A stretch of DNA of 64,000 bases from Takakia lepidozioides. Lineage: Eukaryota > Plantae > Bryophyta. Positions 20,811 to 51,938 of this stretch are shown piece after piece. The DNA lies in contig CM060732.1 in NCBI GenBank assembly GCA_030704615.1, positions 66,588,001 through 66,652,000 of the forward strand. The letters run 5' to 3'. The position numbers were made by a program, and so were the translations under genes. Below the pieces are notes generated by a model, which did not search any database, was not told the DNA's origin, and saw only the letters and a list, made by a program, of their open reading frames with translations. Positions within the stretch are counted from its first letter, which is position 1. Each line of letters starts with the position of its first letter.

Positions 20811-21318
20811 TGTAAAGCCAGATTCTCGTCCACCCCGTTATTCCTCTTCCTCTACGGGTATTGAGCTATCGCAAGGATGTGTGCTCGGTAAAGCAGGCTA
20901 GCGAGATAGCCAGGATCCAACGGAGAGGAGTCAGAATCATTCACATGGATTAACAACACATCCTCACTCACACCTTTTTCATCCAAAACTCACACACAGG
21001 TACACTAGGGTTTACACACCAAACGTACACCGCCGCCTTAAGCGCGTGTTGATCTCTTTTATAAACGAAGGCCCACAATCTCATCTAACCAAGTGGCAAG
21101 CCCTGATTGGTTATTTGGATTCCATCCGGGTATCTGTCCAGATAGGATGTCACCTCATTTTATTTTAGAGATAAACTAGCTGTTAATATAAGACAATACT
21201 TAGTTTAAAAATAGATTGTTTCCAGCTGGTTTCATCCAAGCCCTTTTCCAACGGTCATCATCCAGCGTCTGTTCATCCAAATGTCGAAAAGGTAGGTAGA
21301 AGGAATCTAGCCATTACA
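20811..21318 (-). repeat. 3' LTR of the outer Gypsy element (shared ~500 bp plus a 9-bp terminal segment)
   Basis: 20820-21318 matches 39601-40100. The terminal TGTAAAGCC (20811-20819) is absent from the other LTR but recurs at 21321-21329. Confidence 0.92.
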
Positions 21319-21689
21319 TATGTAAAGCCTCCTGGCACACAGAGAAGCGAGCTCCAGCGAGCTATCTAACAAACATTATGCTCAAGACAGGGAGCAGTGT
21401 CGCTCAAGGTCACACCAAGATAGGATGAAAAAACCGCAACAAGAAAAACTTTGCTCTGCATTTTGAGTGAAGGGCAAAACCTTGTCGGGGAAAAACCCAC
21501 ATGGAGAACTACAAAGAGAAATGAGATGGATCCTAGGTAGGGAGCAGCTGAATAAAAGATAGTGTCATGAGTAAGTCTATGTAGCAACGGAATCAGAATC
21601 AAGCCGAGCACGCTTCTTTGGAGTTAAAGCCACATGACGATTCTCCACGTTGAGGCAGGTCAAATCAACTGCAGCTTAGAAGGGACAAG

Positions 21690-24600
21690 TTGAGAAACAT
21701 GAACTGTCCCTGCAATCTCTGCCGTAGAAAGATGCTGAGGAAGGAGACGGTACTGTCGACCAGGCAGAATCGCATGAATCAGATAAGGCCCATCGATCCG
21801 CATCTTGGATTTGGTCACCTGTTTGTCAGGCTGCAATCAAACACAAACAGTCTGGCCTAGAGAAAAAAATTTAGAGTAAACAACCCTACGGTTATAATTT
21901 CTAGCCTGAGCAACTTGAGAAGCCTGAATGTTGTGTTTAGCAGTCTCTAATAGCAAACGATGAGAAGTGAGGTGAGTAAGAAAGTCTTCCCATATGATGG
22001 GCTCCTCAACCTGAGTTTGAAGCACAGGGACATGAAGAGGGGTGCGAGCCTTGCGGCCATACAAAAATTCAAAAGGGGAAAAGCGAGTGTTGGCATGTAC
22101 CGAGGTCCTGTAGGCAAATATGAGAATGGGTAGAGTAACATCTCATTCTTCAGTGAGAGCCCCGTTCTTTTCTAACAACTGGCACATGGTTTTGTTAAAC
22201 CTCTTGTAAGCCCATTGCACTGGGGGTTGTAGGGAGCAGTCAAGCGATGCTTGACATCTAAATTAAAGCACACAACCTCCATCAGCTGGTTACAAAACTC
22301 CATACCCTAATCAGTTAAAATTTCAAGGGGACAACCATGGCGTAGCAGGATTTCATCAAAGAAGAATTGAACCATCTCGTCACTATCCTTAGCAACCAAT
22401 GGTCGGATCTCAATCCACTTAGACAGATAATCAGTAGCCACATGTAGCTATTGCCCTTAGTCGTAGTTTTGAGGGGTCCAACAAGATCAAGACCAACTCG
22501 GGCAAACATCTCAATCACCGGAATTGGTTGTAATTTAAGAGGAGTTATGGTCCTAGGCAGCAGTGTTTTGGACTTACATGGAACACACTTAGAAATGAAA
22601 TCTGCCACATCTTTAGTTAACCCCTTCCAATGATACTTTTCTTGGAGTCTCTTGACAGTTTTGTCAACGCCTAAATGACCAGCATATAGTGAGCAATGGT
22701 AAAGCTCAAGCAATGCAGGCATAGAGCTCCTAGTACGGACCTCCACGACAGTCTCTTGCCCATGAACATGAGACTACCTTAAGCAACTTACCTTCATGTT
22801 CCCGATGAGAGGGGAGATGATAGCTGACTTGCCTAAGGAGACGGAAAGAGAGGCCCGACAGATGAGTGTTGGTCTTACACTTCTGGAGGAGGGCTTGGTG
22901 AAGTAGGTCCTCCATGGTTGCAGCTGCCATAGCCAGCCCTTGGGTTAGTGTGAGCATAACGGAGTGTCCGCCTCAGTGATCTCCAGGGGAAGACTTTTAG
23001 CTCAACTGGATGACAAGGAAGACTTCATGAAGATGCAACCAAGGACAATGAAGCACATAAACAGATTTCCCTATGGAGAGGATTCAGTGCCAAACCAGAA
23101 CTAGAAGGACAAATGTACAGTTCAATCAGAGAAGAGAGAGAGATATCATACCTAAAATATGACCTCAGTGACAGGATAGCACTCTAAACCAACCTCAACC
23201 AGCAGAAAAGGAAAGCAAATCCCATTCAGACATGAGATCAGGTGGAAGAAAAGGAACAGTGGCAAACAAAGCAAGTAAATCGGATCCGTCAGGAGAGGAA
23301 GAAGGCAAGGGTGAAGCACCAAATGGTAAGCAGTGTGCAAGGTCATCTAAGGTAACATAAGGGGCAGAGGACTTAGTCTCAGTGCATGTGAGAGCATCGG
23401 TATTGCTGTTGGCTTTGCCTTTCTTGTATTCAATGTCGCACTCGAACATTTGAAGAGTAAGTGACCACCGAGCCAAGCGTCCCGAGAGTGCTCGTGGGGT
23501 TTTGAGAGCCTTCAATGGAAGATGATCAGTTTGAATAACAAAGGGGCAGCCATGGAGATACTGCCATAAATGTTTCACCCCAAAAATGACTACAAGGCCC
23601 TCTTTATCAGTGATCTGCTATAGTTCTTTTCATGTTTGTCAAGCCGCCTGGAAGCATAGGCCACCACATGTTCCCTGCCAACTCTCTTTTGGCATAGAAT
23701 AGCTGAAACAGCCAGGTCAGAGGCATCAGTCTGAAGAATAAAGGGCAGTGAAAAATCAAGAAAGACCAAAATGGGTGCACTGGTGAGGGCGATTTTGAGT
23801 TTCTCAAAAGCAATGATTTGGGACCTGCCCCAAAGAAAACGAACATTGCATAACAACTGATTAAGCGCAGCGGCAATGTGAGCAAAGTGTTTAATGAAAC
23901 GACGATAGTAAGAGGCTAACCCAAGGAAAGCACGGACACAATTTTTGTCACGTGGAGCGGGATATTCCCAGACAGTCTGAATTCTGGCAAGGTCAGGGCT
24001 AATGCCTTTAGCTGAGAGAAGGTGGCCAAGAAAATGAAGCTCCGTCATGCACAGATCACATTTCTTGGCTTTCACTTTGAGGCCTGCTCCTCTAAGCCTA
24101 CACAAAACGCGCTTCAGATCCAGCATGTGAGAATCAAAGTCAGCTGAGTAAACGTTGATGTCATCAACTTATACCAATGCACATTCCCAGTGCAAGTTCC
24201 CTAGAACAACATCCATGAGACGTTGAAAGGTGGCAGTGGCATTACATAATTAAAAATGCATGGTTTCAAACTGAAAGAGGCCCATCTTACAGGTAAACGT
24301 AGTTTTCTCCTTGGCTGACTCTGTGAGTAGAACCTGCCATAGGCCTGTAGCAAGATCCAAGGAAGAGAAGAGAGTGGCACCATTGAGTTGATCCAAAGTA
24401 TCATTAATGCGAGGTAAGGGATATACATCCTTTTTGGCTAGGGCATTGAGACGTCGGAAATCAACACAGAAACGGGTGGTACCATCTTTCTTGGCAACCA
24501 ACACGATGGGGTTGGCCTAGGGGGAAATAGAGGGTTTAATAACTCCTGCATCAAGCATCTTGGTCAGTTCAGTTTGCATAATTTTGCGCTCTTTGACACT

Positions 24601-26990
24601 TTCTCTATAAGCATATTGTTTGACAGGGCTAACCAGCACTGAAAACATCAAGATTGTCACGAAGAACATGATATAGACGAGACCTTTCATTGTCAGTGAG
24701 ACTAGAGCCCATTTTGATATCAGTCAGGACCTGGTCAAGATGAGCAGATTGCGCTGGAGTGAGGGGACTGACCTTGGGTGCAGCCACAGATTGTGCCAAG
24801 AGATGCAATTGATCTATAGGATCATCAGACAGGCCAATGTCAGCAAAACTTAAAGCATGTTGCACCTCTCCTAAATCTTTCAATGGGGTGGCAGTGAGTC
24901 GTGCGAGGACCTGACCCTTGCGGATGGTGATAGGTATGCGTTCTGGGTTAGCAACAAGAAGTCTGAGCTCCCCTCGAAAGCCCTGATCTAGCACCCCAGA
25001 TGCAATCAAACAATGTTTGGAAAGCATCAAGCGTTTCCACCCCTCGACTTCAAGATAACGACCTTGTGGACAAAGAAAGGTGAGGCCAAAAGAAACAATC
25101 CTTTGGGAGGAGGCAGGTATAACAAACTCAGTGGGATTGCGAAGAAGAGTGGTGTTACCTGGGATTGGAATGGGAGGGCCACTCTTCTTACCAGGCAAAG
25201 GTAGCTGCCACTGATACAAGGTGGAAGGAGCCGTCTTGGCAAAGTTAAAGTAACGTGTCCAGTTGTATTGCTCGCCAGCCTGCCGTCTCAAGTGTTTCAA
25301 CAACAAGGGTTCGCATGTGGGAGAGATGCGCAGTGGCACAACCAGCGGGCAAGGAGACAGAGTTGAGTTGCACCTTGTGGGGGGAGGAGATGCCACTGGC
25401 AAGCCACATGATGTTTTCAACCACATCAATCTTGGCCCCTGTAGCACACATCCAATCCAAGCCTAACAGCCACTGCTCACCAATGGTAACGATACAAGTC
25501 AGTTTGACCGACTTGCAACTGACCTTAATAGGGATGGTGACCAAACCTAGGGGTCCATAACGTGTGCCATCTGCAATGGTTACCTGCAGACCTGTGGCTG
25601 GAGTGAGTTTGAGACCAAGTAGTTGAACCTCGGACAATGGAACAGCAGACATGGTACAGCATGTGTCAACAACACATGAAAACGATAGGTGTCATATGTG
25701 ACATTGAGTCATGAGAGGGTGCACTCTTTCCCTCCTAAGCTTCCTATTGGCTTCACAATGCATTAATTTGAATTCATTGGACAACATCACAGAAACAATG
25801 GAGTCATCCTTTGCAAGGTTTGTGGGATACTGACCGCTTGGCCCCTTCACAAGCGATCTGGTTCGTTTAAAGGCTATTTGCCCCTCTGTTTGCGTTTAAT
25901 TCGTTTGTGTTCTTCAATCATACCAGGGACAAGAGCGGCATAGGTGCAGAAGCGGATCCAGTGCTCAAGTGACCCACAAATGAAACAGGCCACACGTTTA
26001 CCTTGAACCTCATACCGTGGGCCAGTCTGAGTGTGGCCACGATGAGAGTCAGCAGCAGGAGGCTTTGGCAGGTGCGGCCCTCCAGGATCCTTCTGCCTTG
26101 ACAGCCTGAAGCTGAGTGTGCATTTCTTGTTGTAAGGTCTTAACCTCCTCCAGTAATGTAGGAGAGGCCTCTGTAGAGCCACCCTTAACCATGGCAACCC
26201 CATGAGAACATTCGGAAGTATGTTGATGAGCAGAATGAATAACAGGCAGACAACTTTTGCCTACTTTAGCATTCTTAAACCTCATGCGCTCATCCATCAT
26301 CTCTACCATATGCCTCTCATTGCAATAAGGATGCTTTTGTAGGTAGACTTGATCAGAGGCAGGTAATCTGGTAATGAAATAGGTTTTAAGTATGGCAGTG
26401 CGTTCAGAAGGTACCGGAATGGCCTTGACCACCGTGGTTTTCAAGTCAATGTAGTATTTCCAAATACTATCACCAGGTTGATAAGGACGATCGGGCATGG
26501 TGTAGTTGATGGGCGTGTCTACACGAAACAACTGAAGTGCCAACTGCTTGGCCATTCCCCATCGCAACTCACCCTGATCCTTGATATTAGCTTCAAAGAG
26601 GTCACGAGCCTCACCTTTGAGACAAAAATGAAAAGAATGAGTAATCATAGAAGCTGGCAGCTCATTGAATTTGACACTCATCTCAAAAAAATTGAGGAAG
26701 TTGTCAAAGTCCTCAAGATAAGGCCTTGAGCTTGGTAACTAAGGGCGAACCTACTTGCTTATCCAAAAAGAGCTGCATAAGAGCAGGACAACTAGACAAT
26801 GTAGCCATAGCATCACAAATGCCCTGAATATTGAGGTTAGGCACATTACCAGAGGCTGGAAGGACCCCTGGGGTCGGACTAGTATCATCACCTGGCAGTG
26901 GCTCCTTGGGAGACAAGGTTTCAGACATAGGATCAGGAAGAGTGTCACCATCAACTTATACATCATCAGTAAGATCCACATCATCCAACT
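21690..26990 (-). pseudogene. Gypsy gag-pol of the outer element (gag with zinc knuckle, protease, dUTPase-like, RT, RNase H, integrase), many stops and frameshifts
   Basis: CFICGSLEHWIRFC knuckle; VVDTCC protease site; [10 protein letters not shown]...YPLPRI RT, with YVDD mutated to *VDD near 24170; LQTDASD RNase H; HCSLYAGHLG...CVPC integrase zinc finger; FSPFEFLYGRKARTP. Confidence 0.93.
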
Positions 26991-27067
26991 CATCTAGTAC
27001 ATTCCATGGCTCCTTGCCAAACCGAGTAGTAACGGGCATTGTAGTCTGTCTGTTAAAAACAAAGTGG

Positions 27068-27813
27068 TTACCTTTTGCTTGAGGATCGTGCAGGCCGCAA
27101 TTTGGACTCCCAGTCCTTGATGCAATAGCCACTTATGAATCTGTGTTTGTGAAGCATGTAAACACATTCACCCAGAAAGTGCCACAGTTCTTCGTCCACT
27201 TTGAGCCAGAAAGCCACTCGAACAATGGAGCGGATAAGCTTCTCCTTGGCAAGCAGTGTTTGCACCGGATAATCACTAACAGGAAATCCAGGCAAGTAGT
27301 AACCCAATCTTTCCTGTCTAAACACAATAGCATTGGAAAATCAAAATATCACGCACAGTATGAGGAAAGCGAGAGACGGGAATGCCTGCAACATGGTCAT
27401 CCCAAGTTATGTCCACATTGTAGTCAGGTTTCCAGGTAGGCCTCAGGTTAGCCAAGACAAGAGAACTGCCACCTTTCACCAGCTCCCATAGACGATGCGC
27501 ACTGGGTAAATGGGGCGGAAGGAAGTTCTCGCACTCGCCAGAAACCTCCCCAACTACTATGAACTGCGGAACACCAACTTCAGCCCACGAGAGCCGCCAA
27601 CCCTTCAAGAGCTTGTCTTTGGCCTCAGTTAATGGAAGCTTGCGTGCTATCTCCGCAGCAAAAAAACGTTGCAGGGCCTTGGCCGCTCTGGCCCCTTCAA
27701 ACGTTTGGATGCACTTTCGCCTCTGAACGCTTCTTCTTGCGAAGTGTGGGTGGGCTTCAGACCCTCCAACGCAGCGGTCAACTCAAACTGAGCCACCTAG
27801 TGATCAGAAGGCG
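27068..27813 (-). pseudogene. Extra ORF upstream of gag in the outer element (3' part; 5' part at 39233-39420), unknown function
   Basis: Coding-like frames 27068-27325 and ~27318-27783. The ATG-initiated ORF 39420-39233 (MASSSNPSTDAE...LVLDTP) is cut exactly at the nested insertion site. Confidence 0.55.
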
Positions 27814-28421
27814 TGTTGTGCGCATACATATCGCTACACAACTACATCGCTGTCCAAAACCACACAACATATGTGCACACCACACACTAGTATACCACTA
27901 GTCCAACCACTAGGCTGCCACTATGTTGCCCACTATGGCAGTCACTAGTCCACACAATGATAAAGAAGAAGAATATAAGCACGAGCTCACAAATCTGAAG
28001 CATAAACTCATGCATATATAACCTCATCACTCAAATACAAGTCAAGCCAAGTGCACCCCACGCCATGGGGAATCCACACTACGGCGCCATAGCTAGGCGC
28101 GGTGAGGCTCAACTCGAGAAAGATGAGCCTCCCGCGCTTGCCATGAAGATAACCACTCCAGGGCCTAAATCTGCCTTGACCCCTGGATTGACACTTGGGC
28201 CAATCCCAAATGTCAATATGTAAAAGCTAGCTATTTCCTAGCTAGTTTCACACTAGTGATAAAATAACTTGACAGCTGTCGTGCGCATACATATCGCTAC
28301 ACAACTACATCGCTGTCCAAAACCACACAACATATGTGCACACCACACACTAGTAGACCACTAGTCCAACCACTAGGCTGCCACTATGTTGCCCACTATG
28401 GCAGTCACTAGTCCACACAAT
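27814..28421 (-). repeat. 3' terminal repeat block of the inner element (Y-X-GC-Y; Y=145 bp, X=316 bp)
   Basis: The two Y copies are near-identical; X is near-identical to 38917-39232. Junction palindrome GACAGCTGTC at 28271-28280. Purine-rich AGGGGGGCG (minus strand, 28422-28430) abuts the inner Y. Confidence 0.92.
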
Positions 28422-28689
28422 CGCCCCCCTAGCTGGTGCTTAGGTCCTTCTAAGTCCAGGTAGCCACAAGATGTGATAGTGACCATAGCCTCATTAAGTC
28501 CTCCACCACTATCCCTACTACACTCAAACTCGATAGATCAAGAGATCGGGTACAAGAGTTGTCCCATCGTTAGTCGCCGTCTTGCAACCTGTGAACTTGA
28601 GCTTGGGATCTCATGTATTGACTCCTATGAGTTTGGCCTCCCATGTCTTGTTAGCTACCTCCAGTCATGTCCACTGCCACTATCCCAAG

Positions 28690-29117
28690 CAGTATGGACA
28701 ATCAATCTCCGTCAGGAACCTTCTCAAGAGGTGGTGTCAAGCATCCCATATGCCAACCCCTTGAGCATCGATCACACACCAGCATGGTGGCTGCCCCTTT
28801 GGCAGACCCACAGAGCATGCACCTCAAACCTGCAGGTACCACTGCCAAGTTTGGGTCAACTCTGCCATCGACATTAGGAAGGTGACATGGCGCACAATTA
28901 CGCACATGGTCCTTCCAAGTCATGTCATCCCGACCCTCCAAGATCGGGACCCCTGAGGGCAACACCTCTCGAACCCTCAGAATAACACGCCCTGCAGTAA
29001 CATCCAGAGTCGTAGGAGCAGTCTGCTGCAAATAAACATAGTCACCAGGGTAAACCTCCGAACCCCAGGACGATATCCTCCACCACGTATAGTGGCATAC
29101 CTCAACGTATCACGGTG
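28690..29117 (-). pseudogene. Integrase C-terminal remnant ending in a PHD finger
   Basis: HRDTLRYATIRGGGYRP...CMLCGSAKGAATMLVCDRCSRGWHMGCLTPPLEKVPDGD* (PHD C4HC3 pattern, terminal W mutated to stop), located just upstream of the PPT-like tract. Integrase assignment rests on position. Confidence 0.8.
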
Positions 29118-30013
29118 CCTGTGGCCTTTGGGGTTGTGATGGGCTGTGACATGTGGCCTGTGGGGCTGTGATAGGCTGTGGCCTTTGGGGCTGTGACCCT
29201 GTGACCTTTGTAGGGCTGTGACAGGCTGTGGCCTGTGTGGGGCTGTGACGGCTGTGACCAATGAGCTGTGTGGGCCTGTGCTGGTCTGTGGTGGCCCGTG
29301 TTGACCTATGGACGGCCTGTGCTGACTCGTGGAGGCACTGGTGGACTGCCTAAGGACTGGTATGTGGTCTTGAAGGCCGAATTTTGAAGCTCGTGGAGGG
29401 CAATTTGAGGAGTATCTTCATGATATTCCCATGGTCATGCAAGTGAGGGAAGAGAGGAGAGGAAGAGTGTTGGGATGAGGGCATGCTAGGGTTAGGCATT
29501 GCTTTAGCTTCTCTTCCTCGTAGTTTCCACCCTCTCATTAGGCCAAGACCTTTCCGTAGGTGGAGGCAAGAGTCAGTACGGGTTTGGGCTGGGGTGTCCT
29601 TGCAGGAGCAACACCGTGGAGTTGTTTTTGGTGTGGGGGAGTTGTCGTTCTGATTTCTTGTGTTTGGATCCCCTCCATACCTGCATGCTTGACTGTGCGC
29701 CATGCTAGTTTTGTGTGGGCGCTTGTTTTTATAGGTGATTGGTCCGGATTTGATCACCGGCCAGTCCTAGAGCATGCTGTCGATGGTGAGGCTGGGGTGA
29801 TGACCAGCCAGACCATCATTGTTTCTCCTGTGGTGAGGTTGGAGGTGATGACCAGCCAACCATAGGAGTGCTTGGGGTGGATGCAAGTACAGGTGTAGGC
29901 TATGTTAGGAACTTAGTATTCCAAACCATAAGCCGCAACAGGTTCTTTACCTGGTTACCTTGTGGAGAGGGGGTTAGGGACATGTTCATGACCGGCTGAG
30001 TGTCAACACGGAA

Positions 30014-33000
30014 GTGCCACTAGTTGCTGGGGACAATGCCGGTTCGAGCACTAGTGATACTAGTGGGTACACGAGACCAGGTGTGCGGTTTAGGCCACCT
30101 TCACCTCCTGTGTCTTCTACGGAAGGTTCTGATTCGGATTGTGAATCAGGAGGACTCATACCGGCGGTGCAAGTTGTTTCTTTGCCATTGTTGTGGGACA
30201 CAATGGAGGAGATGTATGGAGCTACCAAGGGGCCACGAAGGTACTCTGGGGCGGTGGGCACCATCGAGTTGGATGATTTTATCCAAGAGTTTGATAGTTG
30301 GTGTGATTTGCAGCAAATGCGCAATCCACAACTATTTACGCCTTTCATGGCATGGAAGGGACTATTTCAGCACCTTGAGGGGCCGCCTATAGATGATTAC
30401 CATGAGTTCAGGCGGGGGCATGAGGTTGAGATCGAGGAGTGGAGGATGTACTGGTCACCCGACTATGTCTCCATCACTAGGGGCACTAGAGCCACGAGGG
30501 CAGTGGCTACACCTGCCGCTGTACCGGCAGCTTCAGCAAGTAGCAGTGGGACTAGTGGGACTGGTGGTATAGTAGCTACGACGTCCACCCAAGCCACTAC
30601 CGCACCAGCACTAGTACCCGTGCCTCCTTTCAACCCTGTTGTGGAGTTCTTCGAAGAGTTGAGAGAGAACTACCAAGGGGTGAGGACAGAGAAGTTGCGA
30701 AGCTTGCAAGAGTTCCAACGGAAGCCGACCGAGAGCTTGAGGGAGGCTTTCACTCGCATGAGGCGCTTGATAAATGTAACCCAAGGGGTTACGGAAGCTC
30801 AGGCAGTCCAATTCTAGTATGGGATATTGAACAAGGAGCTGAGGAGAAGGGTGCGGGATGCAACTCTCCTACAAACGGCCCAACCCACCTTAGCAAATGT
30901 GTTTTTGCTGGCAGAGCAGATAGAGCTCAACATGGTGGAGGAACGAGTGGTCATGGTGGGATTTGCTAAGGAGACACCATGGGGTAGTGGTGCTCCTAGC
31001 CAACCACTACCTCAACGTGCTCAAGGCAACAAGGGGGCTCAGGTGAAGCTCAGGGAAGGGCAGAGAGGACCTCAGATGCAGGGGTCTCTCCCTTCATTTG
31101 CTGGCCAACAACGGGCGGATGTGGTGTGCTGGACATGTAGAGGACCCCATATCAAGAAGGATTGCCCAGAGGGAGGCAAAGGGCCAGCACATGCACAGCC
31201 TGCACAATTGCAGTGTGGGCATTGTGGCAAGCACGGGCATGGAGAGGCCCAGTGTTATGGTTTGCATCCTGAGTTGCGCCCAGGCCACTTCCAAGGGAAC
31301 AATGGTGGTCGGGGGCGAGGTGGAGCAGCCCAGAGAGGACGAGGTGGCCAGCCACGAGGTGTAGGCCAAGGGCAAGCTCAACATGGCCAAGGACGCGGAG
31401 GTCAGGGTGTTGACTAAGGCATGGCCAACCGGCTTCAGCAGCTAGAGCAGAGGCTCGCTGCCATGGCTACAGCTCAGGTGATACCGGCTCTAAGGCCGGA
31501 TGGTCCACCTCCTGCTCCTGAGGGAGGAGATATGGGAGGCATGAGATCTTGTGGAGCAGCACTACCACTAGTGCAGGTGGAGTCTGCTGCAGCCATGACT
31601 CGAGGAGCAGCACGAGTTCCTGAGCCACGAGGTGCAGAGGTGGAGTTGGATCCACAGCGTGAGGAGACAAGCCGTCAGGCTAGGCTTCCTCAGTCGTTCA
31701 CATTGGCGGAGACAGTGTCGACGCCATCCATGGCACCTAGTTCTCGCCCGACTATTACCGAGGCGGAGGTTACTATGCCATTGGGGAGAGCTACACGGGT
31801 AGCACCACTACCTAGTATTGCCAAGGCTACGGCAGCTAGTGTGCTACTAGGAGCGGCCACATCTGTGTGCCAGGCTCCATTGTTCTCGGCTACCATGATT
31901 GCGACGCTGGGGGTAAGAGCAGCTGAGGTGTTCAGGCTGGCAGCTACACTCTGTGAGAGTGGGGAGGTTACTTCATCTTCTGCGGAGATAGTGGGAGGTG
32001 GAGTGTCGGAGGGATCCTTGGATTTAAGGGTCAAGACTGCCACGGCGGCGCCATGGCAAGCTGCAGTTGTCAGGTTGATGGAGCTGCCAGCTAGGCCAGC
32101 CATTGAGCGCGCCATGGTGACACCTGGAGTTGTCATGTTAGACAACCAGGATGGCATTTTCTGTTTGAGTGGACTGGCAGGCAAGAGGTACCGGCCACTG
32201 CGGGTCTTGTTGGACTCGGGAGCTCAGCCATTGATGTTGGGCAGAGCTGCTATTGCAGGCTTGGGCCTCACGGAGGCGGATATGGAGCCTTGTCCTTTCC
32301 AGATACAGACGTCTCTGGGAGGATTGGAGCAGGCTCGGGGCATGACACGGCGTGAGTTGGCTATCAGACTACGGCCGGATCACCCTACAGATGGCTCAGT
32401 GATGCGAGCCAAGGCCATTGTGACAGACGCGGTGTCGTACGATGTCCTGGTTGGTGGGGCAGTATTGTACCCCATGGGCTTCACCCTGGATTTTTGGGAG
32501 GAGTCAGCTTCCTATAGGCCTTGATGGCAGTCAGGGGAGGGCCGGCATGTGCAGCTCCCTGTGACGTTTATAGGAGGAGTTGTGGTTGCCAAGCGAGGCA
32601 AGATGCCGACATTAGCAGCATTCACAGCTGCAGTGAGTTGGCCTAGAGAGTTGCTTGAGGGCAACGCTCATTTAGAGGATGTGCCACCTCCGCGAGAGCA
32701 GGATGACATGTATAATATGGCGAAGTTGCCTACCATGGTTGCTCAGACTCCATTGTGGGGCACGAACAAGGATTTGCAGCGGGATGCTGATCGACGGGTG
32801 CAACAAGCCTGGGTGGAGGCTTTTGTACCGTCAGGAGAAGAGGAGAGTACGGGGATTGCACCAGGACCACCTCAGTTGTCTCCATTGGACACCACACCTA
32901 TTGTGTGGTAGTATCCGGATGAAGGCATTTGTCTTCTGGACTTGTTTGGCGGGATCACCACCGGATTGGCTGCTCTGTTACAGGCAAGTGTACGAGTTCG

Positions 33001-33091
33001 GCGTTACCTGTATGTGGAGAGGGATGAGACTGCACGGCGCATTTCACTTCGCCATCTTGCTCAGTTGGTGCAGCGGTACCCTGAGTTGTTG
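30014..33091 (+). pseudogene. Inverted copy of gag - zinc knuckles - aspartic protease - start of C5 DNA methyltransferase
   Basis: One frame interrupted by single stops ending at 30817, 31417, 32524 and 32911. Motifs: FQRKPTESLREAFTRM (gag), CWTCRGPHIKKDC, CGHCGKHGHGEAQC, LLDSGA protease, then LLDLFGGITTGLAALLQASVRVRRYLYVERD (DNMT motif I-II). Confidence 0.85.
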
Positions 33092-35875
33092 TCCCCGCAC
33101 TCTGCACATCTCCTGATGGTACAAAAACCTCCACCCAGGCTTGTTGCATCTGTCGATCAGTAGCTTGCTGCAAATCCTTGCTCGTACCCCACAATGAAGT
33201 GTGAGCAACCATGGCAGGCAACTCCGCCGTACCATACATATCATCTTGCTTTGCTGGAGGTGGCACATCCCCTGCATAGACATTGCCCTCCAGCAACTCT
33301 CCAGGCTAGGTCACTGCAGCTGTGAATGCTGCCAGTGTCGGCATTTTGCCTTGCTGGGCAACCGCAACTCCTCCTATGAACGTCACAGGGAGCTGCACAT
33401 GCCGGCCCTCCCCTGACTGCCATCAAGGCCTATAGGAAGCTGACTCCTCCCAAAAATCCAAGGTGAAGCCCATGGGGTACAACACTGCCCCACCAACCAG
33501 GACATCGTACGACACCGCGTCTGTCACAATGGCCTTGGCTCGCATCACTGAGCCATCTGTAGGGTGATCCGGCCGTAGTCTGATAGCCAACTCACGCCGT
33601 GTCATGCCCCGAGCCTGCTCCAATCCTCCCAGAGACGTCTGTATCTGGAAAGGACAAGGCTCCATATCCGCCTCCGTGAGGCCCAAGCCTGCAATAGTAG
33701 CTCTGCCCAACATCAATGGCTGAGCTCCCGAGTCCAACAAGACCCGCAGTGGCCGGTACCTCTTGCCTGCCGGTCCACTCAAACAGAAAATGCCATCCTG
33801 GATGTCTAACATGACAACTCCAGGTGTCACCATGGCGCGCTCAATGGCTGGCCTAGCTGACAGCTCCATCAACCTGGCAGCTGCAGCTTGCCATGGCGCC
33901 GCCGTGGCAGTCTTGACCCTCAAATCCGAGGATCGTTCCGGCACTACACCTCCCACTATCTCCGCAGAAGATGAAGTAACCTCCCCACTCTCACAGAGTG
34001 TAGCTGCCAGCCTGAACACCTCAGCTGGTCTTACCCCCGGCGTCGCAATCATGGTAGCCGAGAACATCAAAATCTAGTGTGCCGTGAAACAAAGCATAGT
34101 GTTGGAGATGACACTTGGTAAATATGGCATAGTAACCTCCGCCTCGGTAACAGTCGGGCGAGAACTAGGTGCCATGGATGGCGTCGACACTGTCTCCGCC
34201 AATAAGAATGGCTAAGGAAGCCTAGCTTGACGGCTTGCCTCCCCACGCTGTGGATCTAACTCCACCTCTGCACCTCGTGGCTCAGGAACTCGTGCTGCTC
34301 CTCGAGTCATGGCTGCAGCAGACTCCACCTGCACTAGTGGTAGTGCTGCTCCACACATGAATCCCATGCCTCCCATATCTCCTCCCTCACGAGCAGGAGG
34401 TGGACCATCCGACCTTAGAGCCGGTACCACCTGAGCTGTAGCCATGGCAGCGAGCCTCTGCTCTAGCTGCTGAAGCCGGTTGGCCATACCTTGGTCAACA
34501 CCCTGACCTCCGCGTCCTTGGCCATGTTGAGCTTGCCCTTGGCCTGCACCTCGTGGCTGGCCACCTCGTCCTCTCTGGGCTGCTCCACCTCGCCCCCGAC
34601 CACCATTGTTCCCTTGGAAGTGGCCTGGGCGCAACTCAGGATGCAAACCATAACACTGGGCCTCTCCATGCCCGTGTTTGCCACAATGCCCACACTGCAA
34701 TTATGCAGGCTGTGCATGTGCTGGCCCTTTGCCTCCCTCTGGGCAATCCTTCTTGACATGGGGTCCTCTACATGTCCAGCACACCACATCCGCCCGTTGT
34801 TGGCCAGCAAATGAAGGGAGAGACCCCTGCATCTGAGGTCCTCTCTGCCCTTCCCTGCCCCCTTATTGCCTTGAGAACGTTTAGGTAGTGGTTGGCTAGG
34901 AGCGCCACTACCCCGTGGTGTCTCCTTAGCAAATCCCACCATGACCACTCGTTCCTCCACCATGTTGAGCTCTATCCGTTCTGCCAGCAAAAACACATTT
35001 GCTAAGGTGGGTTGCTTGTAGGAGAGTTGCATCCCGCACCCTTCTCCTCAGCTCCTTGATCCCATACCAGAATTGGACTGCCTGAGCTTCCGTAACCCCT
35101 TGGGTTACATTTATCAAGCGCCTCATGCGAGTGAAAGCCTCCCTCAAGCTCTCGGTCGGCTTCCGTTGGAACTCTTACAAGCTCCACAGCTTCTCTGTCC
35201 TCACCCCTTGGTAGTTCCCTCTCAACTCTTCGAAGAACTCCACAACAGGGTTGAAAGCAGACACGGGTACTAGTGTTGGTGCGGTAGTGGCTTGGGTGGA
35301 CGTTGTAGCTACTGTACTACCGGTCCCACTAGTCCCACTGCTACTTGCTGAAGCTGCCGGTGCAGCGGCAGGTGTAGCCACTGCCCTCGTGGCTCTAGTG
35401 CCCCTAGTGATGGAGACATAGTCGGGTGACCAGTACATCCTCCACTCCTCGATCTCAACCTCATGCCCCCGCCTGAACTCATAGGCGGCCCCTCAAGGTG
35501 CTGAAACAGCCCCTTCCATGCCATGAAAGGCGTAAATAGTTGTGGATTGCGCATTTGCTGCAAATTACACCAACTATCAAACTCTTGGATAAAATCATCC
35601 AACTCGATGGTGCCCACCGCCCCAGAGTACCTTCGTGGCCCCTTGGTAGCTCCATACATCTCCACCATTATGTCCCACAACAATGGTAAAGAAACAACTT
35701 GCACCGCCGGTATGAGTCCTCCTGATTCACAATCCGAATCAGAACCTTCCGTAGAAGACATAGGAGGTGAAGGTGGCCTAAACTGCACACCTCGTCTCGT
35801 GTACCCACTAGTATCGCTAGTGCTTGAATCGGCACTGTCCCCAGCAACTAGTGGCACCTCCGAGGTGACACTCAA
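33092..35875 (-). pseudogene. gag - zinc knuckles - protease of the inner element in native orientation, frameshifted
   Basis: Reverse-complement homologue of 30014-32855 with several indels and a filler substitution at ~34066-34125. Confidence 0.85.
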
Positions 35876-36539
35876 CCGGTCATGAACATGTCCCTAACCC
35901 CCTCTCCACAAGGTCACCGGGTAGAGAACCTGTTGTGGCTTATGGTTTGGAATACTAAGTTCATAATATAGCCTACACCTGTATCTGCATCCACCGCAAG
36001 CACTCCTATGGTTGGCTGGTCATCACCTCCAACCTCACCACAGGAGAAACAATGATGGTCTGGCTGGTCATCACCCCAGCCTCACCATCGACAGCATGCT
36101 CTAGGACTGGCCGGTGATCAAATCCGGACCAATCACCTATAAAAACAAGCGCCCACACAAAACTAGCATGGCGCATAGTCAAGCATGCATATATGGAGGG
36201 GATCCAAACACAAGAAATCAGAACGACAACTCCCCCACACCAAAAATAACTCCACGGTGTTGCTTCTGCAAGGACACCCCAGCCCAAACCCGTACTGACT
36301 CTTGCCTCCACCTACAGAAAGGTCTTGGCCTAATGAGAGGGTGGAAACTACGAGGAAAAGAAGCTAAAGCAATGCCTAACCCCAGCATGCCCTCATCCCA
36401 ACACTCTTCCTCTCCTCTCTTTCCTCACTTGCATGACTTTGGGAATATCATGAAGATACTCCTCAAACCGCCCTCCACGAGCTTCAAAATTCGGCCTTCA
36501 AGACCACATGCCAGTCCTTAGGCAGTCCACCAGTGCCTC

Positions 36540-37495
36540 CACGAGTCAGCACAGGCCGTCCACAGGTCAACACGGGCCACCACAGACCAGCACAGGCCCA
36601 CACAGCTCACAGGTCGCAGCCGTCACAGCCCCACACAGGCCACAACCTGTCACAGCCCTACACAGGTCACAGGGTCACAGGGTCACAGCCCCACAGGCAC
36701 AGCCTGTCACAGCCTGTCACAGCCCGTCACAGCCCCACAGGCCACTGGGCACAGCCGGACACAGCCCGCCACAGCCCCACAGAGCACATGACACAGCTTG
36801 TCACAGCCCCTCACAACCTGTCACAGCTCGCCACAGCCTGTCACTAGGCACAGCCTGTCACAGCCCTACACAGGTCACAGGGTCACAGCCCCACAGCCGC
36901 AACCTGTCACAGCCCCAAAGGCCACATGTCACAGCCTGTCGCAGCCCATCACAACCCCAAAGGCCTCAGGCACAGCCTGTCACCCCTACAAAGGTCACAG
37001 GGTCATAGCCCCAAGGGCCACAGCCTATCACAGCCCCTCACAGCCCCATAGGCCACAGGGCATAGCTTGTCACAGCCGTCCACAGCCCGTCACAGCCCCA
37101 CAGGCCACATGGCACAGCCTGTCACAGCCCTTATAGCCCGTCACAACCCCACAGGCCCATAGGGCACAGCCTGTCACAGCCCCTTATAGCCCGTCACAGC
37201 CCCACAGGCCACAGGGCACAGTCCCTCACAGCCCGCCCGTCACAGCCCCACAGGCCACTGGGCACAGCTTGTCATAGCTCGTCACAGCCCATCACAGCCC
37301 ATCACGGCCACAGCTCGCCACAGCTTGTCACAGCTTGTCCGATCCCGTCACAGTCCACAGGCCACAGGGCACAGCCTGTCAAGCCCCTCACAGCCCGTCA
37401 CAGCCCCACAGGCCACTGGGCACAGCCTGTCACAGCCCCCTCACAGCCCATCACAGCTCGCCACAGCTGTCACAGCCCCACAGGCCACTCATGAC
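36540..37495. repeat. Degenerate minisatellite of ~9-10-bp GTCACAGCC(C/T)/CCACAGG units in the inner element's 5' leader
   Basis: Dozens of imperfect CACAG-containing units; shorter inverted copy at 29118-29340. Confidence 0.9.
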
Positions 37496-38916
37496 AGTTT
37501 AGCCATTTCTCCAAGGGGTTTAGCCACGCCAAACTAGGGTTTGTGTCTCTTGGACTCTAGGCTTCTTTGCACCGAGCTATGGCGGCTGTGAAGAAATCAG
37601 CAATGTATTCTTGCTCTTTCGGCTCCCACACACCACCAATAGTAGCCCTAAGCCATGAGGAAGATGGTTGCCACAAACCAAGCCTTCTTTCTCACTTAGA
37701 CTCCCCAAACACGCCACTAAACTCAATGGCAAACAACCAAGCCTTGCTGGTTTCCAGCCCTGTGGGCACTCATTCAAGCGTTTCCCTTGGCCATAACATC
37801 TGTCTTAGAGCCTATTCCAGCCCCCTACACCTGCCACTTCAAGAGCCATGCTCTATCTAGGCTTGAGGTTAAAACCCCAACTCAGAACACGCTCTACAAG
37901 TGTCGGACTATCACATAAGAGCAAATCAGCCCCTTACCTTCTCTTCTAGTTCTCTAAAGCTTGAAAACAAAAGCCCAATAGACTGAAGGCATGCTCCACA
38001 CATGCCCCACTCTCACCACCAGAGAATCAGCCCCTTTGCTTTCTTTCTTGCATCCACCAACCTGAAAATACACGCTTCAGCGGGCTGGAAGCATGCTCCA
38101 CACATGCCCTACAGGGAAACCAACCCTTTCCTTCCTTTCTTGCTTGCCCTCCAAGCTTGAAGATGGAAGCTTCAATGAGCTGAATACATGCTCCACACAT
38201 GCAACCTCTTCACACAAGAGGTATCAGCCCCCTATCTTGGCTCGTTAGATCCTTGATGCTCTCTAAGACAAGACTAAGTAGTCCACAGCCCTTGCCAAGC
38301 TCCTGAAACCCTAAGGCTTACATTTCCAGCCACAAGACACTCCTCTTGTGGTGCAAGAGCTCTTCTTCCAAGCTCTGAAACCCTAGGTGCACATTCCATG
38401 GCCTTGCCGCACCTCTTAGCTCCTGTTCCAGCCCTGCTCTTGCCATGACAAGAGCCTTCTCAATGCTGAAGCTCGATATTGAAACCCACTCTCAACATAC
38501 TCCACAAAGTGCACTGATTTGCCCCAAGCCAAATCAGCCCTTTCGCTTGGTCTTGCAATCCTCACACAATGAAAGCTCGCATTCCCAAGTCCAGTTCTCA
38601 GCTTTGCACCAAAGCCCTATAACCTGCTCTTGACTGGTCCTCTTCCCAATCGTGCTTGCTCATGCATGTACACAATCTAAAACCATCAAGGTGCTCTGGA
38701 ATTACCTGCAGCATGGTGCTTTCATCTCTGAAGCTGAAGATCGAATGCCAAGGTCTACCGCCTCGTAACCCACATCGCCTCCCGCTTCTAACAACCAAGA
38801 GCTCCACGGTGCTCCTTGCATGACAACCTGGTTTCTCTCATTCTCAAGCAAAAACCACAAGTGCTACAACTAACTCGTATCTGGCACTCACAGATACGAG
38901 CTCATCTTTCTCGAGT

Positions 38917-39232
38917 GATAAAGAAGAAGAATACAAGCACGAGCTCACAAATCTGAAGCATAAACTCATGCATATATAACCTCATCACTCAAATACAAGT
39001 CAAGTCAAGTGCACCCCACGCCATGGGGAATCCACACTACGGCGCCATAGCTAGGCGCGGTGAGGCTCAACTCGAGAAAGATGAGCCTCCCACGCTTGCC
39101 GTGAAGATAACCATTCCAGGGCCTAAATCTGCCTTGACCCCTGGATTGACACTTGGGCCAATCCCAAATGTCAATATGTAAAAGCTAGTTATTTCCTAGC
39201 TAGTTTCACACTAGTGATAAAATAACTTGACG
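38917..39232 (-). repeat. 5' terminal repeat (X) of the inner element
   Basis: Near-identical to 27959-28274. On its internal side lies a 17-nt tract (38900-38916) complementary to 39070-39086. Confidence 0.92.
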
Positions 39233-39591
39233 GGCGTGTCGAGGACCAATTCAGGGCGTTCAACCGGAGCACCAAGAGGCGGATAATCAATTTCAACCAC
39301 CAGGCTAGGATCAACTGAAGCACGCACGATGCTGGCAAAAATCAACTCAAAATGACCAGCGGGATTTTCTTTGTACGCATTAAGCTCAGCGTCAGTTGAA
39401 GGATTAGAAGACGAGGCCATTGCCGCAGGTTACAAAAACGCAAGCAGATACTGTGAAAGCCAGGAGCAAGCAAAAACACGAGCGAGAACTGAAATAGTAG
39501 AGCGCCGCCATGGCAAGAGTGTCAGTGTACAGCTACCTGACGTACAAAGAAGGAATGTGCAGCTAATGATTAATAAAATCCTGCAACCCCT

Positions 39592-39600
39592 TCTCCACCA
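39592..39600 (-). promoter_or_regulatory. Probable tRNA-Ala primer-binding site of the outer element
   Basis: TGGTGGAGA immediately follows the 5' LTR on the sense strand, complementary to a ...UCUCCACCA tRNA-Ala-type 3' end (9-nt match only). Confidence 0.6.
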
Positions 39601-40100
39601 AGATTCTCGCCCACCCCGTTATTCCTCTTCCTCTACGGGTATTGAGCTATCACGGGGATGTGTGCTCGGTAAAACAAACTAGCAAGATAGGCAGGATCCA
39701 ACGGAGAGTAGTCAGAATCATTCACATGGATTAACAACACATCCTCACTCACACCTTCTTCATCCAAAACTCACACACAGGTACACTAGGGTTTACACAT
39801 CAAACGTACACTGCCACCTTAAGTGTTGTTTTTATCTCTTTTATAAACGAAGGCCCACAATCTCATCTAACCAAGTGGCAAGCCTTGATTGGTTATTTAT
39901 ATTTCATTCGGGTGTCTGTTCAGATAGGATGCCACCTCATTCTATTTTAGAGATAAACTAGCTGTTAATATAAGACAATACTTAGTTTAAAAATAGATTG
40001 TTTCCAGCTGGTTTCATCCAAGCCCTTTTCCAACGGTCATCATCGTGCGTCTGTTCATCCAAATGTCGAAAAGGTAGATAGAAGGAATCTAGCCATTACA
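39601..40100 (-). repeat. 5' LTR of the outer element (lacks the terminal GGCTTTACA, so no CA before the PBS)
   Basis: Matches 20820-21318. The sense strand starts TGTAATGGCTAG and ends ...AGAATCT directly into TGG. Confidence 0.92.
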
Positions 40101-40527
40101 TCATTCATGAAATTTTTTGCGCCTAATAATAAAATCAATCAATCAGAAAATTAGGCATGTTTTGAAAACAATTTCTCAAATTAGGCATCTTCATCCTATT
40201 ATTTTTTTAAATTAGGCACATGAGAAGAGAAAACATTTATTTTCTGGTCATTGGGTACACTGGTTTTCAAATTGGTATGCTGGTGCATGGTGAAACCTCT
40301 TACACAATGGTACTCTTGAGTTGTGGTAGGCTGGTAGGCTAGTTATTTTCGCAAGCATATATTTGTATTCATTTTTGTTCAAAGAAATTTTGATCTTATT
40401 ACAAACAACATGAGAAGAGGCTTGCAAGTATTTTGGTGGAATTTTTGGGCATTAGGCACTTTAGTCCCATAATTTCCGTTGTTTGAGAACAGCGGAGCCC
40501 TGACAAATTTTATTAATAAAAAATAAC

Positions 40528-42143
40528 TCAGGAAAAAACAACCATAAGGATGATAAAGGAGACACTGCCCCGTGGCCAAATCTGAGAGAGGCTGCAGGAG
40601 ACTAAGGATGAGTAGGTCCATAGCAGCGAGACAAGACTACAGAGGCTCATTGATTCTGCATCCAGAGGATTCAAACGAGAGGTGAACTTTGGATTTGCCC
40701 TTTCTGGAGGTTCTCTTATGCATCCAATCCCTATCTGATTCTTCCTGCTCCATAGATAGTTGGGCGCTAGTGGAGCTGCCAACATGGCGGGATGCCGTCG
40801 TTCCAGACAATCGATGAGTCTGATGTCCTTGTGCAGATGATGTTCCCTTTCCCCAGGCGTTATCAAAGCCAGTGAAAAGCTGTTATCTCCTTCGTTGCGC
40901 ACATCGAGGCAGTCTCCCACCATTTTATCTGGCCAAATCTGAACTGTGATAGGTATCAGGGTGGATGTCCATGCCCTTTTCCAGGAAAGCAGTGGGAATG
41001 GTGGAGGTGCCCCATTCTGCCATCCTGCATACTCTTAGTTTTAAATCATTATAAGAACAGTCAAACTCCCGTATCATATCTCCAAAGCCCCTACATGCTT
41101 GAAGAAGAAAAGGGTCTGTCCACCAGGACAGGGTTGCGGCTACGCATAACAAAAGTTACAAACTGCTTCGATCATCTACTTTCAGGTTAAACTGTCTCTA
41201 TATTTGAGTGGGAGCCTTTGATACCCATTGTATTGTCGTATTATCGATCTTGAATCGAGTTATCTCTGCTTTGACCCAATCTAGAGCATGGTCAACTGCG
41301 AGTTTCCAGTGGGAACCACTTGTAGGCAGCTCAGTTTTGCCAACCCCCAATAAGGACCTCCTCCATTTGCTTATGTCTAAAGCATGGTCACCATCGACTT
41401 TGCAGCGGGAACCATTTGTGGGCAGCTGAGCTTCCATACACAGAGGAAGGAAACTCCGCAACGACAAATATAGGTCATAGCCAACATGAGCAGGACAATA
41501 CAATGAATAGGTTGGTACCAGCCTATACATACAGGAGTGGCTCCAAAACACTTGCAGCTTGTGACCTTCAGGCAGACTTTCATATGCTAACCATGACTAA
41601 TCAAGCAGATTAAACCTGGCAGATATATCACAGCGAAAAGGATATCCAACAGGGTTACAGCGCAATCAAATACAGCCTTATGCAATGGATGGAAAGAGGA
41701 AGAGTGCATGAACATTCCAGCATATCCGGAAGGAGCTCATCGAGGGAGGAGGGATGTAGATTACAGTACTGTATGGCCATAAAACAAACCTCTTTGAGCA
41801 AGATTTGTATAGTTTCTACTCAGATAGCCAGTGAAGGACACAGTTTTACAGGCCTATGCCTACCTTAGGTGTTCCTTGAGACTGGGGAGGCGTCATAGAC
41901 ATCACTTGCAAGGATCTGGGGCATGGCATTGCCAACCTGGAAACTCATATTCAGCTCCACAGTCAGGTCCGACAACTCTTCTGCATGATGTGAGTCACCG
42001 TAGGGAGAATGGAGGGCCTTGAGTGTGGCATCTCCGAGCAAGAGAGCAGCCATTCCTGTGCCTCCAGACAAGCGGAAGTAACACAGACCAAAGAAAGGCC
42101 AGACTACTGCATCTACATTCCTACCTTCATCCATACTGTACAT
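40528..42143 (-). pseudogene. Decayed coding sequence of unknown family downstream of TAF15b
   Basis: Chain of protein-like ORF pieces (41865-42143, 41198-41551, 40925-41152, 40528-40923) separated by stops and frameshifts; partly duplicated at 6500-7440. Confidence 0.4.
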
Positions 42144-42563
42144 TTAATAGCTTAAAAAGGTCAGTATTCAAAGACCAATCTCCAAGTGTGGCTCATAGGG
42201 TCCCACAAGCAGCAGCCAAGTTCAAAGACCTATATTGATTATCACAACTTTTTGAGAGTGAAAACAATAGATGCAGCCCAAAAAGGCTGGCAGGTTGAGG
42301 CCATATCCACTATTCAAGTGAGCTCCACCTTCTGCAGATGATCCTCCTCCCATGACATCTCCCACTTACAAAACATGCTCAAAGGCCCAATATTCCTTCT
42401 ATCAGTACCGTGTCCAAAGCCATCCTCTCCCCTGTGCACAATGCAACTGATGGCGCACTACCGAGTAAGAACTGACAGAAGGAGGAAATCCTATTGAGCA
42501 CGGCTGGCACTCCATCATCACACTTGCCTAAGGCACAATCCCAAAAACTGCTCTGACGTTAAA

Positions 42564-43505
42564 TTAGTAAGGGCGAGAACGGTTGTAACCCCCGCCCTCT
42601 CGTCTATCCGGACCACCACCACCACCCCCCCGCTGACCCCCTCGAAACCCTCCCCCACCTCTAAATCCTCCACCCCCAGGCGCCAGAGGTCGAGGTGCAG
42701 ATTTTGCAGCCATTGTGACCTTTATCTTGTGGCCTCTCAGTTCATAGTTGTTGAAGAACCCGCCTGCAGAGTGTGCTGCTGAAGGATCTTCATAGCTCAA
42801 CACAGCATCTCCCTTATTTTTACCTGCTTCGTCCGTGTAAATCTTGATATTCCAAGGCCATTGATCCTTGTAACCCCGCTTCTGCTTCAGCCGTGCCACC
42901 TGACCGATACCCCCAAAGAGCTCCCGGAGCTCATCTTCTTTCACATCCAGCGGCAAGGCTGAGATGTAGATTCTTGTATTGTCACAAGATTCATTACAGT
43001 TTTCATCACACTGTTTTACTTCCACATCTGCTGCACCCCCTTGAATGTTAGTATCCTCTCTCAGCTGATCATGGTAACTGCTGCGGTTGTCATTGAACCC
43101 TTTACTTTGGTCTCTGTCATTGTTCCTCCCATTCCTTTCTTGATTCCCTCCATAGCCAGCAGGGCTGTCCAGGTTGCCACCACCACCCTGGCCTCCATAG
43201 CCACTGCCTTGGTCGCCATACCCAGCAGCCCCAGTCTCCACTCCTGCAGGTTTTCGCATCCCACACTTGTTGCACTCCATCCTCCTTGCAAAGTTGTTGT
43301 TCCCACAGTTGGTGTTGGGACACGTCCAGTCACCACTTCTATCCCCACTGCCACCTCCCCGGGGTCGGCTGTCATATCCACCGCCACCTTGATTGCCCCC
43401 TCCCCTCTGAAAGTTGCTACGCTGGTCCCCTCTTGACCCCCGGTCTCCTCCGACGTCAGGTATTCCATCCCGATATCTACCTCCCATGTTTGAGTAGTTC
43501 GACAT
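42564..43505 (-). CDS. TAF15b: FET/TAF15-family RNA-binding protein (RGG, RanBP2 zinc finger, RRM, PY-NLS), 313 aa, intronless CDS
   Basis: GDWTCPNTNCGNNNFARRMECNKC zinc finger; CDNTRIYISALP...GFFNNYELRGHKIKVTMA RRM; C-terminal RSRPY; ATG at 43505; possible 5'UTR intron at ~43551-43874. Confidence 0.9.
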   Translation of the reverse strand: MSNYSNMGGRYRDGIPDVGGDRGSRGDQRSNFQRGGGNQGGGGYDSRPRGGGSGDRSGDWTCPNTNCGNNNFARRMECNKCGMRKPAGVETGAAGYGDQGSGYGGQGGGGNLDSPAGYGGNQERNGRNNDRDQSKGFNDNRSSYHDQLREDTNIQGGAADVEVKQCDENCNESCDNTRIYISALPLDVKEDELRELFGGIGQVARLKQKRGYKDQWPWNIKIYTDEAGKNKGDAVLSYEDPSAAHSAGGFFNNYELRGHKIKVTMAAKSAPRPLAPGGGGFRGGGGFRGGQRGGGGGGPDRREGGGYNRSRPY

Positions 43506-50055: not shown

Positions 50056-50169
50056 ACATTGCTCAACATAAACATGAGAAACAATACCACCATACTACTA
50101 GGGATGGCAAACCTAGTGGGTAAGCAAAGCCCAAAGGCCTATGCAAGAAGACCCTGTCAGTCAGACCTA

Positions 50170-51700: not shown

Positions 51701-51863
51701 TGTGTGAAGGGCTTTCTAAAAGGAATCTGGAAAGCCTGAACTAATGTTTATAACACGGTAAGTCCTACTACTGGAGTGAGCCCCTCATGTCTGTTCCCTC
51801 TTGTTCTGCTGGGCACGGGCAAGGTCTGTGGCCACAAGGCTATGATAAGCAACTTCTCAGGAG

Positions 51864-51868
<5 letters not shown>

Positions 51869-51910
<42 letters not shown>
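51869..51910. repeat. (CT)21 microsatellite
   Basis: Perfect dinucleotide run. Confidence 0.98.
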
Positions 51911-51913
<3 letters not shown>

Positions 51914-51938
51914 AGTCTCGAGGACGAAGGACCTCTTT

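Follow-up and report, generated by a model that had tools for sequence, protein, structure and literature searches.

A DNMT3-type C5 cytosine methyltransferase (DNMT) domain, first noticed as a short fragment in Takakia lepidozioides, is a constant component of a many-copy Ty3/Gypsy retrotransposon family whose intact copies likely methylate their own new cDNA, a reading to which we give a probability of about 70%. We regard the identity of the domain as DNMT3-type and its place in a many-copy Ty3/Gypsy family as close to certain. That the enzyme would act catalytically on the cDNA of its own element is argued by analogy, and we hold this part of the reading to be somewhat more probable than its opposite. 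The fragment lies in a 64,000-nucleotide stretch of contig CM060732.1 (positions 66,588,001 to 66,652,000), here called the window, and all coordinates below refer to it.

A rearranged element with the start of a methyltransferase

The element in the window spans 27814-39232 on the minus strand and is flanked by 4-bp duplications. Its features are as follows:

27810..27813, no strand: 4-bp target-site duplication, left copy (repeat/end comparison)
27814..27958, minus: repeat B2, the 3' end of the element, ending in CA (repeat comparison)
27958..28274, minus: repeat A2 (repeat comparison)
28277..28421, minus: repeat B1, 99% identical to B2
28422..28432, minus: polypurine-tract-like run directly before B1
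28661..29117, minus: integrase C-terminal remnant ending in a PHD finger and broken by a stop (PF00628, E 7.5e-8)
29118..33091, plus: inverted arm, a 5' segment (leader repeat, gag, protease, DNMT start) running opposite to the element direction
29978..32911, plus: a single frame, interrupted by four stops, of decayed gag (Retrotrans_gag, zinc knuckles), a spacer, an aspartic protease and a linker
32912..33091, plus: N-terminal 60 aa of a DNMT3-type C5 methyltransferase, with motif I DLFGG and motif II YVE
33092..36748, minus: sense arm, gag-protease in the element's own orientation, frameshifted, ending just before the DNMT
36556..37497, minus: tandem array of ~10-nt units in the 5' leader (repeat families D1 and D2)
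38900..38915, minus: likely self-priming site directly after A1, with 16-nt perfect complementarity to a site inside A
38916..39232, minus: repeat A1 (5' end), 98% identical to A2, with a predicted RNA start near 39086
39233..39236, no strand: 4-bp target-site duplication, right copy (repeat/end comparison)

The translation of 32912-33091 (plus strand) is the peptide quoted in the first-pass annotation followed by 12 further residues. It represents the SAM-binding end of the enzyme, without the catalytic motifs, and is cut at an inversion junction. The annotation had placed the peptide in frame downstream of the protease, and both translation and frame proved exact, the frame being that of gag, zinc knuckle and protease, starting at 29978. 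It had missed that stops interrupt this frame at four places, 30815, 31415, 32522 and 32909. The last of them directly precedes the DNMT peptide, and in the window copy the frame is co-linear but not open. The proposed likeness to motifs I and II of C5 methyltransferases was borne out. The fragment is 72% identical to a Marchantia protein (P0454) over 60 of 60 residues (E 1e-28). Against a family profile from which it had been left out it reaches 80 bits, and a profile of 23 distant members only still gives 63 bits, with 1000 shuffled controls reaching at most 3.9 bits in the profile test. The Pfam check that the annotation had suggested (DNA_methylase, PF00145) came out negative, as the 60-aa peptide alone gave no match to this family; the fragment ends before the region that Pfam detects in the relatives.

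Two of the four stops, 32522 and 32909, were compared with other copies of the family. They are absent from 99% of the depth in public run X1 and from all depth in runs X5, X6 and X8, and are thus private to the window copy. Furthermore, contigs from these four runs have loose ends beyond 33091/33093, i.e. other copies continue past the end of the fragment. Consequently, the DNMT is a regular component of the family in this organism, and the damage is particular to the window copy, which is dead and rearranged, a fossil.

The inversion breakpoint postulated in the first pass is found where the sequence switches at 33091/33092, with 33092-34066 being the reverse complement of 31881-32855. An inverted piece of ~4 kb from the 5' half stands in place of most of the DNMT, RT, RNase H (RH) and integrase (INT), and among the family domains the window copy retains only gag, protease (PR), the integrase tail and the DNMT fragment. 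A tblastn comparison with Marchantia P0007 extended over 30203-33181 at 49%, and the integrase remnant matches Marchantia P0163 at 78%. The PHD finger at its end (28705-29109, minus strand) and the permuted repeats, in the order A1...B1-A2-B2, are both as first described. The arms differ by 3.7% and 6.4%. None of the contigs of runs X1, X5, X6 and X8 spans 33096-33120, so the junction itself is known from the assembly alone, and the 4-6% difference between the arms, with indels, argues against a simple fold-back artefact. As divergence is higher in the arms (157 of 3532 positions) than in the terminal repeats (8 of 453; Fisher p 0.005), the inverted arm may derive from another copy. The empty-site joint 27812-39236 is present in runs X1, X3 and X16.

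The region 29118-36748 constitutes a hairpin with arms of ~3.7 kb, 94-96% complementary, and a 236-nt loop containing the DNMT fragment. If transcribed from A1, the hairpin could yield long double-stranded RNA against its own family, to which Mu killer of maize is a parallel.

The surroundings are diverse. The insertion lies within an older Gypsy element (20820-40101, minus strand) with 500-bp LTRs 6% apart, and this older element has a dUTPase ahead of RT (24632-25462, PF00692); Gypsy elements with a dUTPase are described from fungi in the accessible part of PMC2864245. A CHUP1-like chloroplast-positioning gene is found at 11443-14172 (minus strand; PDB 8wag, E 4e-15). This gene marks the host as a plant, and the nearest relatives of the element make a land plant likely, most probably a seedless one. 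An intron-poor RRM / RanBP zinc-finger gene, which we take to be TAF15/FUS-like, occurs as inverted copies, 84% alike and possibly retrocopies, at 5613-7447 (plus) and 41188-43559 (minus). The remaining features are TPR, beta-helix and DUF4470 reading frames without obvious introns (852-4926, plus), a NIF-phosphatase-like ORF, without a match in the ESM Atlas, with a proline-rich neighbor (46679-50094, minus), a LINE endonuclease (51849-53315, plus), a CACTA transposase cluster with Tnp2, DUF4218 and DUF4216 (55397-58527, plus) and five repeats of ~250 bp each (59697-60990).

Relatives and identity of the domain

By searching with the linker and fragment together, 25 relatives were obtained, 14 from Marchantia, one from Sphagnum and 10 without a species name. 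Out of 23 relatives that were rescanned, 18 passed the Pfam cut-off for DNA_methylase. Calypogeia fissa, Riccia sorocarpa and another two species of Sphagnum came to light in additional searches, in line with the earlier suggestion of such a family in an apparent land plant. The relatives in Marchantia, Calypogeia and Sphagnum are 70-80% identical and keep the catalytic PC and ENV motifs, and in full-length relatives the DNMT lies between PR and RT, just as the first pass had anticipated. Five Marchantia gene models of 1278-1281 aa have the structure Gag-PR-DNMT, with motifs I, IV (GWPCQ), VI (ENV) and VIII intact, and share a common end point.

Over a total of 230 DNMT domains, the catalytic cysteine is present in 226, the glutamate of ENV in 227 and the two motif VIII arginines in 225 and 226. 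In 86 of the 230, motif IV has EC in place of PC, with the cysteine kept, and this variant was seen directly in Closterium-clade proteins; PC is retained in all complete named land-plant members that were inspected. The motif order I, IV, VI, VIII is that of a non-rearranged DNMT within a polyprotein frame. A family profile of 44 sequences ranked DNMT3A highest (1e-28), followed by DNMT3B, DRM (8e-18) and HhaI (3e-9). DNMT3A/B came ahead of DRM, DNMT2 and bacterial enzymes with one relative, with the 44-sequence profile and with an AlphaFold model alike. The AlphaFold model of P0021 (pLDDT 92) had DNMT3A as its top Foldseek match (E 5e-19), and the ESM Atlas placed the same protein with C5-methylase clusters.

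Copies in metagenomes are all decayed, with 3 of 48 DNMT copies free of stops and an open frame of 500 codons in none of 80 loci. Comparing the window fragment with 58 metagenome copies gave a median dN of 0.23, a dS of 1.4 and an omega of 0.16, while omega among the decayed metagenome copies was 0.60 for DNMT, 0.44 for RT and 0.47 for PR. Purifying selection on the DNMT is accordingly read from ~0.16 for the window fragment and from 0.60 among recent decayed copies.

A wider search of 1.84 billion representatives resulted in 269 matches at E <= 1e-30. Those named among the 20 that were looked up belong to Klebsormidium nitens (knuckle-PR-DNMT), three Closterium, Hariotina and Scenedesmus. The Closterium relatives have the DNMT ahead of RT, and the PR-linker-DNMT junction is common to liverworts, peat mosses, Closterium and Klebsormidium. 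A second, chlorophyte-type group (P0046-P0083, P0250 and P0068), with named members from Hariotina, Scenedesmus, Monoraphidium and Haematococcus, carries its DNMT downstream of RH and ahead of integrase, in the order RT-RH-DNMT-INT-PHD; no paper on a group of this layout was found. A quick RT tree, which omits 6 of 51 labelled proteins on account of their short length, separated the two groups (SH-aLRT 100); the DNMT trees, built without a host DNMT3 outgroup, did so more weakly. The window copy grouped with the bryophyte-containing clade (support 96) in a PR-DNMT tree that includes three over-long rows and long branches, and from which 13 of 34 labelled proteins were dropped as the motif pattern missed them. 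Klebsormidium P0269 (GAQ93235.1) is 29% identical to Marchantia P0454 over PR and DNMT (E 5e-55), and in the DNMT tree, with its weak deep branches, no supported sister relationship links it to the land-plant clade. The liverwort and moss DNMT domains are unexpectedly close, on short branches, which could reflect strong constraint or horizontal transfer among bryophytes.

Layout, priming and ends of the family

The domain order Gag-PR-DNMT-RT-RH-INT-PHD was found in metagenome loci such as L008, L060 and L062, out of 80 loci. Of 39 distinct locus contexts, 38 have a stop about 85 codons downstream of the DNMT. CAA comes next in every case, RT continues in the same frame, and an ATG is located three codons further on. 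The position of this stop is where the Marchantia models end. CARYYA is a motif of stop readthrough, and its exact form occurs at the conserved stop in none of the 39 contexts.

The Gypsy order PR-RT-RH-INT was found, with no tyrosine recombinase. The DIRS/Ngaro class is defined by a tyrosine recombinase instead of a DDE integrase and by the lack of a target-site duplication (TSD). It was excluded, since the relatives have rve and Integrase_H2C2 matches, indicating a DDE-type backbone, and since there is a 4-bp TSD. A chromovirus was likewise rejected, as the integrase tail is a PHD finger and no chromodomain is among the Pfam families listed for the relatives.

The repeat arrangement A1...B1-A2-B2 of the window copy recurs in L019, L060 and L062/L064. 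At the 3' end, B-A-B was found in seven loci and a single B in ten (e.g. L016, L042 and L078), three of the single-B loci having both ends and a 4-bp TSD. None of the 19 loci with a 5' A has an A-B-A 5' end. Recombination between B copies, or integration from different circles, are possible explanations for the single-B ends. The integrated form is a circular permutation of a two-LTR element with the LTR B+A, which suggests integration inside the LTR. A 4-bp TSD is present in the window and in five of six independent loci inspected, none being found for locus L019. The TSD sequences vary among these loci, and an NCGN target preference, as given for Phygy in the available text of PMC6317226, is therefore not shared. 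A polypurine-tract-like motif as before B1 was found in 13 of the 80 loci.

Reverse transcription in this family is likely self-primed, to judge from base pairing in the sequence. In the window copy, the 16 nt that follow A1 are the perfect complement of a stretch 145 nt inside A (39071-39086 in A1), while none of 300 control positions reaches 16 nt, their maximum being 9. The pairing amounts to 11 nt in L019 and L062 but is weak in L060 and L064, at 8 nt, a length that 3 of 300 and 7 of 300 controls also reach. A TATA-like box lies ~30 nt upstream of the predicted priming-complement site in three loci. Self-priming has a parallel in Tf1. The accessible part of PMC2864245 describes self-priming at a site of LTR origin immediately downstream of the 5' LTR.

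Known systems and the role of the enzyme

The family is of the KnitGypsy-Dnmt3 kind (de Mendoza et al. 2018, PMC5890265). The kind was already known; new are its host range, extended to land plants, and the anatomy of a DNMT that ends ORF1 before a stop, a PHD tail, a likely priming site and a 4-bp TSD. As far as the available text of that paper goes, KnitGypsy-Dnmt3 of Klebsormidium nitens is a Gypsy element with an intronless DNMT3 domain in its polyprotein, DIRS-like split repeats and conserved catalytic residues. The Gypsy domains, the non-rearranged DNMT3-type domain within a polyprotein, the split repeats and the catalytic residues are thus shared, and P0269 is possibly the published element. 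In contrast, the same text puts the DNMT in the Pol ORF, while it ends ORF1 before the conserved stop in the land-plant clade, and the text is without the PHD tail, the likely self-priming site and the 4-bp TSD of the present family. Marchantia, Sphagnum and liverworts are not mentioned in the portion of the text available, and the species table, in the form seen, includes Selaginella and Physcomitrella but neither Marchantia nor Sphagnum. Later papers that cite this work speak, in the parts available, of 'streptophytes'. We found no report of such elements in land plants, but bryophyte sequences may be included in the main PDF supplement to PMC5890265, in figures of PMC12344493 or in supplementary files of bioRxiv 10.64898/2026.05.21.726589.

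Other systems share single traits. SymbioDIRS-Dnmt3 and SymbioLINE-Dnmt of Symbiodinium (PMC5890265, available text) are also retroelements with a C5 methyltransferase, but on DIRS or LINE backbones and from independent captures, as opposed to the DDE-type integrase and TSD found here. EpiLTR / DAM-LTR (bioRxiv 10.64898/2026.05.21.726589) similarly combines an LTR element with a methyltransferase and a chromatin-reader domain; its DNMT is, however, sister to DNMT4, with DAM and a chromodomain, and the accessible part of the preprint sets it apart from 'streptophyte Gypsy-DNMT3'. Gypsy polyproteins with a PHD finger are found in Chlamydomonas, namely Gypsy-7a_cRei, with no DNMT reported in the available text of PMC9940879, and REM1, as cited in the seen part of PMC6673714. 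Bryophyte host DNMT3 has the same non-rearranged DNMT3-type catalytic domain but, according to the available text of Yaari et al. 2019 (PMC6453930), is a host gene outside any Gag-PR polyprotein.

In the reading that we prefer, the DNMT would be made with Gag as ORF1, at Gag-like levels, and be packed into the particle, with Pol made rarely, by stop readthrough or reinitiation. Reverse transcription would be self-primed from the site after A1, and the enzyme would mark the cDNA before or at integration, probably at CG, by analogy to DNMT3A and SymbioDIRS-Dnmt3. The latter is DNMT3-type and methylates CG de novo in yeast, and self-methylation by a retroelement DNMT is proposed in the same source (PMC5890265, available text). 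Against this reading speak the negative yeast result for the Klebsormidium relative, the decay of the metagenome copies, the higher omega of DNMT than of RT or PR among them, and a stop context without the exact CARYYA motif.

That the peptide is a chance resemblance, or an exon of a host DNMT3 captured once by a dead copy, could be suspected from its lack of a Pfam match when searched alone and from the stop directly before it. This is extremely improbable, and we consider it refuted by the same PR-linker-DNMT junction in liverworts, peat mosses, Closterium and Klebsormidium, by the stop being private to a copy whose counterparts continue past 33091, and by the shuffles, which stay below 4 bits against 80. 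A more substantial alternative has the DNMT acting on chromatin rather than on particle cDNA, so that once in the nucleus it would methylate older copies or the site of insertion, possibly with the PHD-tailed integrase as its guide, and thereby limit or disguise the family. In both layouts integrase ends in a PHD finger, in the chlorophyte-type members integrase is directly preceded by, and fused to, the DNMT, and roles at the insertion site and in host benefit are raised in the discussion of PMC5890265, as far as available. We nevertheless think this unlikely, as the land-plant DNMT ends ORF1 and is separated from integrase by a stop; bulk packaging with Gag fits this better than a one-to-one delivery.

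The DNMT might also be kept for a non-catalytic or non-DNA role, e.g. RNA binding or methylation or as a particle scaffold, or need a host partner. The Klebsormidium DNMT domain of KnitGypsy-Dnmt3 gave no methylation in yeast, a result that its authors called inconclusive (PMC5890265, available text), and the EC variant of motif IV could be taken to point in the same direction. Such a role is nevertheless rather improbable: chlorophyte and streptophyte members alike show almost no variation in the catalytic cysteine, ENV and the arginines of motif VIII, PC is kept in all complete named land-plant members inspected, and by both sequence and fold the domain comes closest to DNA enzymes and not to DNMT2.

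A broader scenario is offered tentatively, and we doubt that it holds in full. In this, an ancient green-lineage Gypsy clade would have captured a DNMT3 once and kept it from chlorophytes to land plants, while its position moved within the polyprotein. Land plants would produce the DNMT at Gag levels to pre-methylate cDNA, and the elements would prime themselves and, probably starting from a circular intermediate, integrate through a cut within the LTR, leaving A...B-A-B ends. If true, many de novo methyltransferases encoded by transposons would reside in the genomes of liverworts and mosses, having gone unnoticed as 'hypothetical proteins' in Marchantia.

The role of retrotransposon DNMTs has been undecided since 2018, and the hosts described, Symbiodinium and Klebsormidium, are hard to manipulate. 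Marchantia polymorpha is open to CRISPR, and transposons are released in its met1 mutant (bioRxiv 10.1101/363937, available part). With its full-length-looking ORF1 models, such as BBN20516.1 / Mp_Vg00370, the idea of self-methylation becomes directly testable in this species, and concrete predictions on mechanism follow from the conserved stop behind the DNMT, from the likely priming site and from the permuted ends. Inventories of bryophyte DNMTs, as well as bryophyte methylomes, may contain enzymes made by transposons.
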